From a virus: DNA of 64,000 nt. Below are positions 35,030-51,754 of the stretch, one piece after another; position 1 is the first letter of the stretch; each line of letters begins with the position of its first letter. The stretch is from IMG/VR virus record IMGVR_UViG_3300020401_000001, positions 5,292-69,291 of that record; one strand, given 5' to 3'. The notes under the pieces are model-generated. The model was given only the letters and a program-made list of their open reading frames with translations. It ran no database searches and was not told the DNA's origin. The position numbers and the translations under genes are program-made.

Positions 35030-35890
35030 ATGGCAATCACACAACAACAATATTACGCAAATGACGCTTTATGGGGCGGAACACAATACACTAAGCTAGA
35101 AGATATAATAAATAACTTCTATGCATTCTATGTTGGTGATGGTAAAGTTATAGATACTGCTAAAAGGTATGATGTTGTATTTCATGCAAAGCGAGCTCTC
35201 CAAGAGCTACATTACGATGCACTAAAAGAAATAAGAGCTGTAGAAATAGAGGTGCCCCCTCAACTACAAATGATTTTGCCAAAAGATTTCGTAAGTCTAG
35301 TAAGGCTTTCTTGGATTGACACTAAGGGGAGATTTCATCCTATTACAGAAAACAGAGACACAGCTATTGGTGTAGCTTACCTACAAAATGATGATGCTAC
35401 ATATTCATATCAGTTTGACGCTGAAGGCAACATAGAGGTAGGTAGCACTATAAGCCGTGAACGTGCAAAAACTGTACAACCAGAAGACCAAGACTCTACA
35501 TCTTTATTAGACGAAATGTATGGTGGTCGTTTTGGTATGATAACAAATAAGGCAAACATAAATGGAACTTACAACATCAGTAAACACCTTGGCACAATAG
35601 AATTTAGTACAGAGCTTACAGACAAGCTCGTAATGATTGAATATGTTACTGACGGGCTCACAGACCTTGATGATAGTGAAATACAGGTCCATAAGTTTGC
35701 AGAAAACTATGTTTTCAAACAAATTGCTTACTCTATATTATCCACTAAGTTCGGGGTTCAAGAATACATTGTCAGAAGATTTCAAAAAGAAGCGTTTGCT
35801 GCATTAAAAAACGCAAGAATAAGATTGAACGATGTCAACCCTGTTGACCTTGTAAAAGCGATGAAAGGTCGAAACAAGTGGATTAAATAA
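35030..35890 (+). CDS. second ring/adaptor-like structural protein
   Basis: 286 aa; [22 protein letters not shown]; precedes the stabilisation protein. Confidence 0.6.
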
Positions 35891-38800
35891 TGAGATTAAG
35901 AAATACTTTTATTGGCGGCAAAATGAACAAAGACGTAGACGAGCGTCTTGTTCCAGATGGTCAGTATAGAGATGCTGAGAACATCAAAGTTGCTATGTCT
36001 AATAGTTCTGACGTTGGCGCCTTAGAAAATGTGCTGTCAAATCAACAAAAATCTTTTTTAAATACAGGAGATAATGCTGAAACAATAGGTAGTGCAGCTG
36101 TCGAATACACTAATTGCGTTTATTGGTTTGTAAAGTCTGACACATCTAGCGCTGTTTATGAATACAATATTACTACTGATTTGCAAAGAATAATATTGCT
36201 AGACACCAGAACAGGTTCAGACAATGTATTAAATTTTACTAAAGAAAATAGAATAAACAATGTAGACACTGTAGTTGACACTGATAACGGTAAGATATTT
36301 ATATTCTGGACAGATGGACTTAATCCTCCTAGAAAAATAGAAATAGATAGAGCAGCTGGATATGGAGAAAATAATTTTACAGATGAAGACATTAGTGTTA
36401 TTGTAAAACCTCCACTGCATAGACCTACGTTTACTTTGTCTGCAACAAACACAGCTGACGAAAATTACATCAAAGACAAATTTTTGCAGTTTTCATATAG
36501 ATATAAATACGTAGACAATCAATATTCAGCTATATCTCCATTTAGCAATCCTGCATTCGAACCCTATCCTTTTAAATATAACTACGGACTAAATAGCAAT
36601 GAGTCATTTGTTAATAGGTATAATGTTGTAAACCTAACAGTAAACTCAGGAAGCCACCTAGTTAAAGAAGTTGAAGTCTTATATAAAGAAGCTGGTAAAA
36701 CAAATTTATATGTTGTAGAATCATACAACAAAGAAAAGAAAACTTGGGATGACAATACTGATTATGTAGTTACATTCCAAAACAAAAAGATAAGCAAGAT
36801 ACTTCCAGAGAGTCAAATTAAAAGAATATTTGATGCTGTGCCAAGAAAAGCTTTTTCACAAACATTTATTGGTAATAGATTGATTTATGGAAATTACACA
36901 GAAAACTGGAATCTTATTGATGAGGTAGGCGGTGAAATAAAACCTGACTTTACTGCTTCTGTTTTAACAAATGAATTTGCTACTGCACCATACACAACCA
37001 TGAAGTCTGGTAGAGACTACGAAGTTGGTATAGTGTATTTAGATGATTATGGCAGAACTACAACAGTTCTTACCTCTGATGGAAATAGTGTTTTTGTACC
37101 AAACGAAAATTCATTATATCAATCTAAACTGCAAGTTGAGATAAGAAGCAAAGCTCCTGTATGGGCAAAGTATTTTAGATTTTTTGTCAAAGAAAGCAAA
37201 CTGCCATACGACATAGTTATTCCTACAAGATTTTATGTTGATGGAGCTTATGTGTGGATAGAATTAACTGGTAGTGACGTTAACAAAGTAGAAAAAGGAA
37301 CACGTTTAGTAGTAAAAGCAGACACTTCTGGACCTGTAAAAGGATATGTAGAAACAGAAGTCTTAGACCTACAAACACAAACAGTAAACTTTTTAGAGCC
37401 TGACCCAACAGTAGCAGAGCTAGAACAAAAAGCAGGATTGTATTATAAGATAAGACCAAAAGGGTTTACTTTCAATAATAATGCAGTAGAAATATATGAG
37501 TTTGAATCGAATCACAGCACAAGAGATAGAAGGGAAGATATGATAGACAGGGGCGATAAGCTTCAATATTTTAGCGACCCAATACCTTATCTATCTGAAT
37601 CAACTACACTTGCTGGGAACTCATTATCTAGGTCAGGAACTAATATAGCTCCGAGAGATATTAGATATAAAATAATAATAGATGCCGTAGGAGATGGCAT
37701 TACAACTTACGATGAGTTTAGAGTTGAATATGAAGACAACGGAGTTGCTTACGCTCAACCAGCTGTAACAATTACAGGAAGTAGTCAAACTATAACTAAC
37801 GGGCTTAGTGTAAACTTTAGCTCTCGTTCTGGTCACACTGTTGGTGATTATTGGATGATTAGTGGTTATGGTAAAGAGCCTTTGAACTTTGGGAATCGTG
37901 ACAGGTCTCATGCTTTGTTTAGAGGAGAACCTGGCAATGAAGTTATTGAGGCAGGGTCAATAGTAGAAATAGAATATATCGAATCACAAAAAGCTGGTGA
38001 CGGATATAGCAATAGTTTTACAGAATCATACACTTCAAGCAGTAAATATGCAAACTTAGAAGAGTGGTATTACGGAGAAAACCTTTCTGGATTTGGTCCA
38101 GGAGTAACAGATGCCCAAGTATTTTTTAGGCATGTTAACTTGACTCCAAATCACGGAGGTGAAGGGGATACTGCTTACAAAGTGCAGGTACAGCAAAACG
38201 GAACTATGTGTATGATAATCCAAAGTAAACAAAGACAATGGAATGAGAGAAATGCAAGGTCGAGAGTTTACACAACGGGATTATTAGAAATTAAGACATC
38301 AGATAGTTTACCTATTTTTGAAACTAAAGGAATAGAAAAAGATTCAGATATATTTTTTGAAGTTGGAGACACTTATGAGTTATCAGAGAATGACACTTTT
38401 CATGTTGGTAAAGCAGGTGATGTTCCTCAATCTTTTACTTCTCCTGCTGTAATTACAATAGACGCACATAACGCATGGGCTTGGGGTAATGGATATGAGT
38501 CAATAAAAATTAAAGACTTATTCAATAATCCAACATTTACTTTTGACACAAGACCAAGCACGTTTATAGAAAGCTATAGAGAAAATAACAGAGTAGCTTC
38601 TTTAACTTACTCTGGTGTTTACGAGCAAAGCACAAATTTTAATGCCTTAAATGAATTTAATTTATCTACGGCAAACTTTAAAGATATAGATGACGCTTTA
38701 GGTAGTATACAAAAAATAGTATCACGAGATAATGATATTGTTGTGTTTCAAGAAAACAAAATATCTAAACTCCTCTTTAATAAAAATATTATATTCAACA

Positions 38801-39798
38801 CTGACGGTTCAGGTAATATATCACAAACTAAAAATGTATTAGGAACTATAACTCCTTATACAGGAGAATTTGGTGTTGGACTAAATCCTGAAAGTGTTTG
38901 TAAATATGGAAACGTAATATATTTTGCAGATACAAGTAGAGGTTTTGTGTTTAGACTATCTAACGATGGACTAACTCAAATATCACAGTATGGCATGGCA
39001 AACTATTTTAGAAGCGAATTGCCTGTGCGTGATTTAAACAAGACTTTAGGTGGATACAATCCAAGAGACGGAGAGTATATTTTGTCTTTACAAGGAGGAA
39101 CAGAGTCTACAGACACTTTATTGTGGGTTGGAGATGAATATACATGTGAACAAACATTCGTTGATGATGTAGTAGAATGGAGAGGTAGCGATGCTGTATG
39201 TCTTGTTTCTTGTTATGGAGAGTGGAAGCCATCTGACATAGTAAGTGACGGTCAAGATTGGAGAATAGACGAATATTATTGTGAGCAAGAAGAGCAAAGA
39301 CCAACACCTGCTCCAATTCCTACGCCAGCTCCAGCACCTACACCAGTACCTGTTGTTGTGCCTTCGCCATCGCCAGTACCAGTGCCTACACCAGTGCCAG
39401 TTGTAGCTCCTAACCCAACACCTTCACCAGCACCGACACCAGCGCCTGTAGCGGACTTACCACCATCGCCAACACCTAGTCCTACTCCGTCACCTACGCC
39501 AGCACCCGTGGTAATTCCAACGCCTAGTCCTACGCCTAGTCCTACGCCTGCGCCAGCGCCTACACCTACACCAACACCAGCGCCAGCAAGCCCAACAGCA
39601 TTTAGGTTAAACCCATGTAACCCGTTTGGTAGTTATGGTAAGAAAATAGCATTTGACTCTGGTCTGTATGTCGGAGCTGTGGTTACAATAGAAGATGGAA
39701 ACTGTTATGCGGTTAGTGCTGCTATCACTGATACTGCTAATTCTACGGTATCTCAGATTTTCTTAAATTGTTATAATTGTACTAATGGAATATTTTAA
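35890..39798 (+). CDS. tail stabilisation (nozzle/muzzle, P22 gp10-like) protein, N-terminal part, fused to a Pro-rich stalk and Cys-rich tip
   Basis: F.GGKMNKD.DERL.P.GQYRDA.N start; [33 protein letters not shown]...[18 protein letters not shown], then an abrupt change to Trp/Cys motifs and (PT/PA/PS)n. Confidence 0.75.
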
Positions 39799-51001: not shown

Positions 51002-51009
51002 TAAATTTG
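51002..51009 (+). promoter_or_regulatory. -7 promoter element giving an apparently leaderless transcript
   Basis: TAAATTTG with the ATG at +5. Confidence 0.6.
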
Positions 51010-51013
51010 TGCT

Positions 51014-51754
51014 ATGGCAAACTACGAGAACAAAACAGTTGGGTTTAGTGAAATAAATAACGGCTGGACGTCATTTTATTCTTACATTCCTGAAGATATG
51101 GTCTACATGAAGTCAGACTTTTACACTTTTAAGGGCGGTAATATATACAAACATAACATTGATGACGCTTCTCGTAACAAATTTTACGATAAATATTATC
51201 CTAGCAAGGTTGAAACTATCATAAATGATGACCCAGAAGCTGTGAAAAACTTTAGAACTCTTAATATGGAAGGCTCTTCTGCTTTCTGGAGAGTAGAAAT
51301 AAACACAGACTTAGATAAAGGCGGAGCAACTTATGATGATTTTGAAGAGAGAGAGCGATTGTTTAAAGCTCACATCAGAACTGACAGAGACGACAATCTT
51401 AATTTAGAAAGACTTACCGTGCAAGGGCTAGGTACACTAATATCTACAAATGGCACATCTATGTATTTTAGATTTATAGATAACGCCATTGAGTATGGTG
51501 ACTTCGTTTATAAAATATATGGTAAATCGTATACGTATTTAGGTAAAATTATTGCTGTATTTGAAGATTATATTATGTTAGACTCTATAGCTGACCCAGT
51601 AGACCCTGGTCAATTTTGTTTTGCTACAAAAGACCCAGTGATAGAAAGCTATGGATTGAAAGGATATTTTGGCAGCTTTACGTGTACAAGTTATGAATCA
51701 ACTCCAATAGAATTGTTTGCAGTTGGTACAGAAGTAACGCAAAGCAGTAAATAA
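51014..51754 (+). CDS. probable C-terminal part of the tail stabilisation protein, as a separate gene
   Basis: TVGFSE..NGWTSFYSYIPE, FYTFKGG.IYKHN, N.FY, VKNFRTL..EG, GLKGY, ELFAV. Confidence 0.65.
   Translation: MANYENKTVGFSEINNGWTSFYSYIPEDMVYMKSDFYTFKGGNIYKHNIDDASRNKFYDKYYPSKVETIINDDPEAVKNFRTLNMEGSSAFWRVEINTDLDKGGATYDDFEERERLFKAHIRTDRDDNLNLERLTVQGLGTLISTNGTSMYFRFIDNAIEYGDFVYKIYGKSYTYLGKIIAVFEDYIMLDSIADPVDPGQFCFATKDPVIESYGLKGYFGSFTCTSYESTPIELFAVGTEVTQSSK

Follow-up and report, generated by a model that had tools for sequence, protein, structure and literature searches.

A crass-type nozzle encoded by two genes on either side of a proline-rich stalk and enzyme cassette in a marine Bacteroidota phage

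The nozzle locus

IMGVR_UViG_3300020401_000001 is a complete phage genome of 69,291 bp with direct terminal repeats. In the 64,000-nucleotide stretch analysed here (positions 5,292 to 69,291 of that record; hereafter the window), the terminase, portal, capsid and tail genes all lie on the + strand. This strand also carries the two open reading frames (ORFs) with which we are concerned, 35890–39798 (1302 amino acids (aa)) and 51014–51754 (246 aa, beginning MANYENKTVGFSEINNGWTSFYSYIPE), both of which are present as a preliminary description of this DNA had reported. They encode the N part (aa 1–1069 of the long ORF) and the C module of a nozzle, or muzzle, protein and are separated by 11.2 kb containing nine same-strand ORFs, a cassette of proline-rich stalk genes and putative enzyme genes (Table 1).

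The two ORFs together encode one nozzle protein

The long ORF matches the Pfam family crAss_MUZ (PF25731) at 66.8 bits (cut-off 27) over aa 2–220, a match that covers only the beginning of the profile (positions 2–207 of 1224), and the PHROG family phrog_14478 (E-value (E) 2.3e-259), for which the best stretch stops at aa 1069. The short ORF matches crAss_MUZ_C (PF25729) at 48.4 bits (cut-off 27) over aa 53–123, and phrog_18548. The two Pfam matches thus sit in two different ORFs, not in the one polypeptide expected of the muzzle family. Both ORFs tile the unbroken homologue gp097 (1324 aa) of Cellulophaga phage phi38:1, aa 2–1076 of which align with aa 1–1069 of the long ORF (40% identity) and aa 1079–1321 with aa 8–244 of the short ORF (28% identity, E 5e-24). 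Two residues of gp097 are left over at the joint, so the break, at nucleotide (nt) ~39096, is located to within about two residues.

Predicted structures divide the nozzle at the same place. The AlphaFold2 (AF2) models of the N part and C module have predicted local distance difference test (pLDDT) scores of 84.1 and 83.6, respectively. On the muzzle protein gp44 of Bacteroides phage crAss001 (7qol_P) the N-part model covers residues 4..1200 (Z 26.1, 682 aligned residues, root mean square deviation (rmsd) 6.1) and the C-module model residues 1195..1371 (Z 11.0, 157 aligned residues, rmsd 2.2), with a Foldseek E of 3.8e-6 in the comparison of predicted models with the gp44 fold. On the cyanophage A4 nozzle the two predicted models cover residues 18..654 and 648..1009. 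The ranges are complementary on both proteins, and together the models account for the canonical nozzle: the N part is predicted to comprise the start that joins the ring, the bulk of the beta-propeller, the immunoglobulin (Ig)-like domains and the large distal domain, and the C module to supply the propeller strands that are still missing, MUZ_C and the terminal beta-barrel. The C-module model also resembles the C-terminal parts of the VP1, Kp7 and P22 nozzles (Z 6.7–7.0), and a profile of 41 stand-alone C modules matches gp44 residues 1200–1283 (E 2.4e-12). Sequence searches of the PDB with single queries gave no match for the short ORF and only low-complexity matches to Pro or PT linkers for the long one. 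Taken together, the alignments and models identify the two ORFs as two parts of one nozzle protein, in agreement with the preliminary description.

In the models, the last two strands of the N part (aa 1052–1057 and 1062–1067) and the first strands of the C module (aa 8–12 and 17–22), as assigned by DSSP, lie close to the break. N part and C module abut within −5 to +18 residues in 58 of 61 distinct fused homologues, which places the joint at a short turn; by our reading of the models, the cut falls at a turn, either within one propeller blade or between two. The turn also admits loop insertions: among 39 long proteins, three fused homologues (P0062, P0120 and P0130) have 144–180 aa in frame there, which contradicts the idea that an insert is never found in a fused form. 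The joint maps to gp44 residue ~1195–1200, past the IG2/crass region (residues 318–1021). According to its structural description (PMC10172136), the crAss001 muzzle protein is a hexamer at the tail end, with a ring-joining domain, a seven-bladed beta-propeller like that of the T7 nozzle and two Ig-like domains, and its crass domain, inserted at residues 453–904 and 940–1012, forms the tip. Since the joint maps beyond the region whose crass domain forms the tip, a stalk attached at the joint probably leaves the nozzle at the level of the propeller, and the earlier placement of the stalks at the tail tip is doubtful.

Past the joint the long ORF runs on for 233 aa to its stop codon, with no homology to phi38:1 after aa 1069. 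The switch from nozzle-like sequence to Trp/Cys motifs and a proline-rich stalk that the preliminary description had seen at ~39090 is borne out by the PF25731 match, by the break at nt ~39096 and by segmentation of the ORF. The Trp/Cys segment (aa 1070–1133) has an EWRG...YCEQ motif in common with ORF 43542 of the cassette.

The genome contains a single copy of the C module. The ratio of non-synonymous to synonymous substitution rates (dN/dS) of this copy is 0.057 against the near relative L005 (30 synonymous and 8 non-synonymous differences; L numbers are our labels for loci) and 0.10–0.18 against relatives at 71–74% identity, for which dS is saturated, indicating that the stand-alone module is under purifying selection. 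The enzyme block stands directly upstream of the module in five of the five closest relatives (71–100% identity), and the assemblies L093/L004, L134 and L005 are collinear with the window at 90–97% nucleotide identity. The low dN/dS, the retention of the enzyme block and module in relatives, and the completeness of a genome with one module copy argue that the split form is functional. Homology, selection on the C module and conserved linkage likewise make it likely that the two halves assemble in trans.

The short ORF had also been credited with a −7 promoter of its own. The sequence TAAATTTG, a possible −7 box of the Bacteroidota type, does end just before its start codon, and the motif precedes 10 of 59 chosen genes at a distance of at most 60 nt, where 2.4 are expected from its density. 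Across the window its 99 matches do not exceed the chance level of shuffled sequence (88 ± 8.7). A dedicated promoter is plausible; the placement of the motif is what would be expected of a genuine promoter element and an almost leaderless message. Scans of 35000–54500 for sigma-70 promoters (64 against 61 ± 8) and terminators (14 against 12.4 ± 3.4) were at chance level.

Table 1 Features of the nozzle locus in the window
Feature	Position	Strand	Basis or remark
Nozzle/muzzle N part, aa 1–1069	35890..39096	+	phi38:1 homology, PF25731, phrog_14478, AF2 model
Trp/Cys-rich segment, aa 1070–1133, start of lineage-specific extension	39097..39288	+	Conserved in relative L132
Pro-rich stalk, 105 aa (aa 1134–1238), P alternating with T/S/A/V	39289..39603	+	Segmentation of ORF
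64-aa Cys-containing end domain (knob) and stop codon	39604..39798	+	No Pfam or PHROG family match
Stalk protein 1, 594 aa: anchor, 124-aa Pro-rich linker, three globular domains on Pro linkers	39799..41583	+	
Stalk protein 2, 329 aa: anchor, Pro linker, two globular domains	41607..42596	+	
Stalk protein 3, 250 aa: anchor, Pro linker, one globular domain	42598..43350	+	
60-aa ORF: anchor and a few Pro-rich residues only	43353..43535	+	Anchor matches in near-identical locus L093
Stalk protein 4, 585 aa: divergent anchor, five small globular domains, Pro-rich linkers of 31–90 aa	43542..45299	+	
Prolyl 4-hydroxylase-like 2-oxoglutarate (2OG)-Fe(II) oxygenase, 421 aa	45343..46608	+	Catalytic half aa 5–183
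O-fucosyltransferase-family domain and O-carbamoyltransferase, 856 aa	46595..49165	+	PF10250, PF02543, PF16861
Glycosyltransferase, Pfam 'GlcNAc', 284 aa	49158..50012	+	PF11397, 117 bits (cut-off 21)
NAD-dependent sugar epimerase/dehydratase, 327 aa	50009..50992	+	PF01370
TAAATTTG, possible Bacteroidota-type −7 promoter box	51002..51009	+	Ends 4 nt before ATG of ORF 51014
Nozzle/muzzle C module, 246 aa	51014..51754	+	phi38:1 homology, PF25729, phrog_18548, AF2 model

Split nozzles are common among relatives

Eighty-seven phage records are matched by both query ORFs, all from Flavobacteriia hosts or aquatic samples (Flavobacterium 68, Cellulophaga 15, Tenacibaculum 2, Maribacter 1 and one spring-water genome). 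A phmmer scan with the C module found 2543 representatives at E ≤ 1e-3, the best 150 of which were classed: 76 are whole stand-alone modules (209 to ~280 aa), 10 are stand-alone proteins in which the match stops after the first ~140 residues and other C-terminal parts follow, 36 are long fused proteins and 28 are intermediate (2 of these also long fused). Each of the 76 whole modules has Met as its first residue, and the match sets in within 19 residues of it. Among the best 120 of 1459 N-part homologues at E ≤ 1e-10, with lengths restricted to 716–2279, the C module is absent from 95 and present in 25. One of the 95 ends 41 residues short of the joint and the other 94 have 52–849 extra residues past it, in which adhesin-like domains are found (Big_9, cadherin-like, TSP3, BACON, He_PIG and DUF5977). 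Of the homologues with a long extra segment at the joint, almost all terminate behind that segment.

Three pattern scans yielded 200 loci, or 197 once three own or near-identical loci had been removed. Set aside from these were 46 loci whose N-part end is incomplete, 22 duplicates, 19 in which no module is seen (mostly at contig ends) and 18 that are fused at the window's joint but truncated before their end. The remaining 92 comprise 6 unbroken nozzles, 27 split at the window's joint with adjacent genes, 29 split at that joint with 271–8571 nt between the halves, and, at a second joint (module profile position ~140), 6 split with adjacent genes and 24 with 1.5–4.0 kb between. The nozzle is therefore split at one of two hot spots in 86 of the 92 informative loci, 53 of which have genes in the gap. 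At the window's joint the C module lies downstream of the N part in all 56 split loci, and where the genes are adjacent their ORFs overlap or have at most 27 nt between them. The comparison of loci bears out the suggestion of a variable insertion hot spot at this site, and indicates that the gap between the nozzle halves is one for host-contact genes in particular.

Cultured phages show several of these states. phi38:1 (Pervagoviridae), whose gp097 is the best-matching cultured unbroken homologue, has the same gene order upstream and a similar gene row downstream, but its single 1324-aa ORF has no appendage, cassette or enzymes at the site; elemoF and Gundel are also unbroken. In the Cellulophaga phage phi19:3 (Pachyviridae, Baltivirus), homology of the 1613-aa N-part protein gp120 ends at the same residue as in the window (…YVL, aa 1110), after which the protein runs on for ~500 aa with Big_9/cadherin-like domains and then ends. 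Its C module, gp121 (241 aa, phrog_18548, annotated as a structural protein), follows after 3 nt with no gene between. Unlike the window, phi19:3 has no Pro stalk, hydroxylase or glycosyltransferases. A single gene separates the halves in the spring-water phage genome MW202828. In Maribacter phage Panino (L009, 5001–8914) the nozzle is cut ~80 residues before the window's joint, into a 946-aa gene and then a 320-aa gene that encodes the N-part end together with the C module; representatives of 322–340 aa that match the C module fit this third break point.

The second break point falls inside the C module, between the MUZ_C domain and the terminal barrel, and leaves the last ~100 residues as a separate small ORF. 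Its 24 open gaps (1.5–4 kb; for example L102, L103, L107 and L110) contain the same prolyl hydroxylase as the window in six cases, accompanied in two of those six by the fucosyltransferase (FucT)-carbamoyltransferase. Another lineage, represented by L012 and L127, has 8.4–8.6 kb between the halves; the gap of L012 (5.6–14.2 kb) consists of two giant ORFs of 1407 and 1360 aa without a Pfam family, one of which has a long Ser/Thr-rich run. Among 29 between-halves ORFs of other loci, Pfam matches were limited to a methyltransferase (L020), an oxygenase and a glycosyltransferase (L069) and a weak Lcl_C match (L071). Many between-halves genes of other phages have a conserved start motif without a Pfam family (…TYYLNGP.LA.ST.IF.D…APDGFYSDG…; L055, L056, L059, L060, L064, L072, L076, L078, L080, L081, L085, L087–L089 and others), which by eye resembles a domain in the cassette ORFs 41607 (aa 134–202) and 43542 (aa 364–433).

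The split is older than the cassette

We placed these states on a FastTree phylogeny built from 1064 alignment columns of 121 N parts. The states with and without the module must have interchanged at least 12 times, and well-supported branches force 11 of these changes; shuffled labels need 22.9 changes on average, and none of 500 shuffles was as low as 12. The window belongs to a four-member clade (support 100) nested in a clade of 56 rows that are all without the module (support 94). Because the window's N part sits in this all-split clade, the plain reading of the tree is that the split predates the cassette in the window's lineage. Together with the censuses, the tree indicates that the two-gene nozzle is a common state in this aquatic Bacteroidota podophage group and has changed many times. 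We hold the joint claim of a two-gene nozzle, its age and spread, and an insertion hot spot with good confidence.

The cassette combines stalk proteins with putative modifying enzymes

The cassette ORFs abut or overlap. Four of them encode stalk proteins with a common N-terminal anchor of ~40 aa, nearly identical in the relative L132, and Pro-rich linkers of 17–124 aa. The last two globular domains of stalk protein 1 are paralogous (39% identity, E 1e-22), and aa 134–202 of stalk protein 2 are 46% identical to aa 364–433 of ORF 43542. An Atlas structure look-up for stalk protein 3 (ORF 42598) returned only rows with template modelling (TM) scores of 0.22–0.33. The 60-aa anchor-only ORF, which ends 6 nt before ORF 43542, may be a truncated stalk gene or encode a free anchor peptide. 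Polyproline-II helices rise by 0.31 nm per residue; at this assumed rise the 105-residue polyproline-like stalk of the N part could reach some 30 nm.

Four enzyme genes follow. ORF 45343 matches PF13640 at 61.9 bits (cut-off 27), and nine of the nine PDB sequences that phmmer retrieved at E ≤ 1e-3 are prolyl 4-hydroxylases (P4Hs; best E 2.9e-24), including those of Bacillus (5iax/3itq, E 3e-24), human (C-P4H alpha-2), Chlamydomonas (2jig) and a chlorovirus (5c5t, E 5e-14). Residues H93-x-D95, H163 and K173 are identical to those of the Bacillus enzyme in the alignment; H93, D95 and H163 would form the iron triad, and K173 would be the 2OG-binding lysine. ORF 46595 matches the TobZ, GdmN and novobiocin carbamoyltransferases in the PDB (E 1e-23 to 7e-33), and its aa 203–308 match POFUT2 (E 1e-5). 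The PF11397 match of ORF 49158 consists of two stretches within aa 58–228; the ORF also matches the glycosyltransferase family phrog_24687, and a sequence search of the PDB found no solved relative. NCBIfam returned nothing above its cut-offs for the cassette enzymes; the sub-cut-off matches of ORF 50009 are to GDP-fucose synthase, heptose epimerase and dTDP-glucose dehydratase.

The same hydroxylase, with or without the FucT-carbamoyltransferase, stands just after the N-part gene in L069, L100, L102, L103, L107, L110 and L154, mostly at the second joint. Among 86 de-duplicated loci, a Pro-rich ORF lies within 10 kb past the joint in five of five hydroxylase loci and in 3 of the 81 others (Fisher p 1.6e-6, kinship ignored); in one of these three the contig ends before the enzyme block would start. 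PF11397 enzymes glycosylate hydroxyproline (in Skp1) or threonine, and [A/S/T]-Pro repeats are glycosylation modules in plants. It is a tentative proposal, to which we give slightly less than even chances, that the cassette enzymes hydroxylate and O-glycosylate the Pro-rich stalks.

Over window positions 40001–46000 the GC content is 0.42–0.44, against ~0.35 elsewhere, and the GC skew is negative; the region coincides with the Pro-rich genes (CCN codons). A 142-aa Gly/Ala/Val-rich ORF on the opposite strand (39897–40325) looks like the mirror of Pro codons and not like a gene. Directly after the C module, 51759–52184 encodes 141 aa (phrog_17252, of unknown function, with no Pfam match), which are conserved as ORFs of 139–140 aa in close relatives; phi38:1 and MW202828 each have an ORF of similar size behind the nozzle gene, labelled 'structural protein' in the former (gp098) and acetyltransferase subunit in the latter.

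Alternative explanations

The preliminary description had the cassette, of 12 kb, growing inside a surface loop and breaking an intact nozzle gene, which would make cassette and split one recent event. The cassette is located exactly at the joint, at a short turn tolerant of insertions, and the best-matching cultured relative, phi38:1, is unbroken. This origin is nevertheless improbable: in phi19:3 (gp120/gp121) and 27 adjacent-split loci the C module is separated at the same residue without any cassette, an observation that the preliminary description had itself named as a refutation, the N part of the window falls within a clade of 56 that is split throughout, and this N part has its own terminated appendage, like 94 of 120 homologues, and needs a stop codon regardless of the cassette. 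Slightly less probable still is that the N part folds alone and that the 246-aa protein no longer completes the nozzle, having become an independent virion or non-virion protein. Modular reuse of this kind is seen in the ten stand-alone homologues that combine only the first ~140 residues with other C termini. The window's module, however, aligns with the final 177 residues of the solved muzzle protein, starting at the joint (Z 11.0, rmsd 2.2), whereas the N-part model stops at gp44 residue ~1200 and is thus without that part of the fold; the module is also under strong purifying selection and keeps a fixed position downstream of the N part in 56 of 56 loci.

There is only a very slight chance that the arrangement is a broken gene in a defective phage or an assembly artefact. 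The genome comes from a metagenome and not from an isolate, but it is complete with terminal repeats, the arrangement recurs in assemblies at 90–97% nucleotide identity and in relatives at 71–74% protein identity, dN/dS is 0.06–0.18 and cultured phages have the same split. We give equally little credence to the halves being rejoined into one polypeptide through an intron, an intein, ribosomal bypass or a frameshift. The ORFs of adjacent-split relatives, which overlap or are at most 27 nt apart, would allow frameshift fusion there; in the window the halves are separated by 11.2 kb and nine same-strand ORFs, no intein or intron family is among the Pfam and PHROG matches, the long stalk of the N part terminates in a knob that looks folded, and 76 of 76 whole stand-alone modules begin with Met at the same place.

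Several points weigh against the two-gene nozzle and its proposed history. The match of the N part to gp44 rests on Pfam and predicted structure, and an N-part alignment profile found no match in the PDB at E 0.01. Three of the 61 distinct fused homologues (P0062, P0120 and P0130; 2237–2439 aa) hold 144–180 in-frame residues at the joint. The censuses are non-random, being the best-scoring rows of capped searches plus pattern-based scans, and loci from the P0153 scans are mostly fused at the window's joint and broken at the second joint instead. On the N-part tree, 'split' means an N-part protein without the C module and nothing more; the tree is unrooted and drew long-branch warnings, so that it shows many changes between the two states, which may be fissions or fusions. 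As for the cassette, the stalk anchors and proteins are without a Pfam or PHROG family and no partner for them was found, and the association of hydroxylase with Pro-rich ORFs ignores shared ancestry, the five positive loci representing about three lineages.

Discussion

We propose that the nozzle of this phage is made from two polypeptides, an N part bearing a free-ended appendage and a 246-aa module. The appendage would consist of a Trp/Cys base, a polyproline-like stalk of ~105 residues and a small knob, and the module would attach to the N part through beta-sheet complementation, making every one of the six subunits a heterodimer. A free-ended fibre appears to have been grafted onto the nozzle at the joint. 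Because such a fibre cannot sit inside a loop, the chain must end after the graft, and the rest of the fold must then come as a second protein. The gap between the halves has turned into a favoured insertion site for host-contact genes, with the cassette as the lineage-specific filling of an old gap.

crAss001 gp44 (PDB 7QOK/7QOL) shares with the window nozzle its predicted fold, both Pfam families and the same neighbouring genes, at 14–18% sequence identity in structural alignments. It is a single 1371-aa chain without a Pro-rich free-ended appendage, whereas the window phage has one on its N part and two genes 11.2 kb apart. A closer parallel for the division of labour is the Pseudomonas podophage A1002, in which, according to its cryo-EM description (PMC13730344), nozzle-base gp42 and nozzle-rope gp39 rebuild one nozzle, the propeller and platform pieces of the rope-bearing protein completing the nozzle base by added beta-strands. 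In A1002, as in the window, a one-chain nozzle is divided in two and one piece has a long fibre-bearing extension. The A1002 nozzle is not a crass-type muzzle; its rope precedes the C-terminal nozzle pieces within the same protein, whereas the window's stalk follows the N-terminal pieces, and its complementation was observed by cryo-EM, whereas that in the window is inferred. In the literature searched, mostly at the level of titles and abstracts, we found no description of a two-gene crass-type nozzle.

For the enzymes, the nearest comparisons are the P4Hs of PBCV-1 (5C5T) and Bacillus (5IAX), which ORF 45343 matches at E 5e-14 to 3e-24, with the four key residues identical in the Bacillus enzyme. 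The hydroxylase gene adjoins genes rich in X-Pro repeats and glycosyltransferase genes, a combination reminiscent of plant hydroxyproline-rich glycoproteins. A literature search for a phage system of prolyl 4-hydroxylase, Pro-rich protein and glycosyltransferase returned only plant cell-wall work. A wider picture is possible, though we regard it as doubtful: the nozzle of this phage group would routinely consist of two or three chains, the break in the propeller turn would serve to graft a fibre on the shoulder of the nozzle, and the cassette would be a 'hydroxyproline-rich glycoprotein' system, with enzymes decorating stalks of ~30–40 nm (105–124 residues) that end in exchangeable knobs. If true, this would put plant-cell-wall-like chemistry on a virion.

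The window phage belongs to a large and for the most part undescribed group of phages with two-gene, and sometimes three-gene, crass-type nozzles, in which an unbroken nozzle gene is the exception among the sampled marine and freshwater relatives. The split explains the small orphan 'structural protein' that annotation pipelines see downstream, and the cultured pair phi38:1 (unbroken) and phi19:3 (split) is suited to a comparison of the two states. If the hydroxylase, glycosyltransferase and Pro-stalk set is active, it would be an unreported kind of phage virion modification and a compact source of enzymes for Pro-rich linkers. The crass-type muzzle is the gate, and likely the first cell contact, of very abundant phages, and has so far been described as one conserved chain; two fixed break points that hold adhesin domains or gene cassettes offer a place to seek host-range determinants in uncultured Bacteroidota phages.

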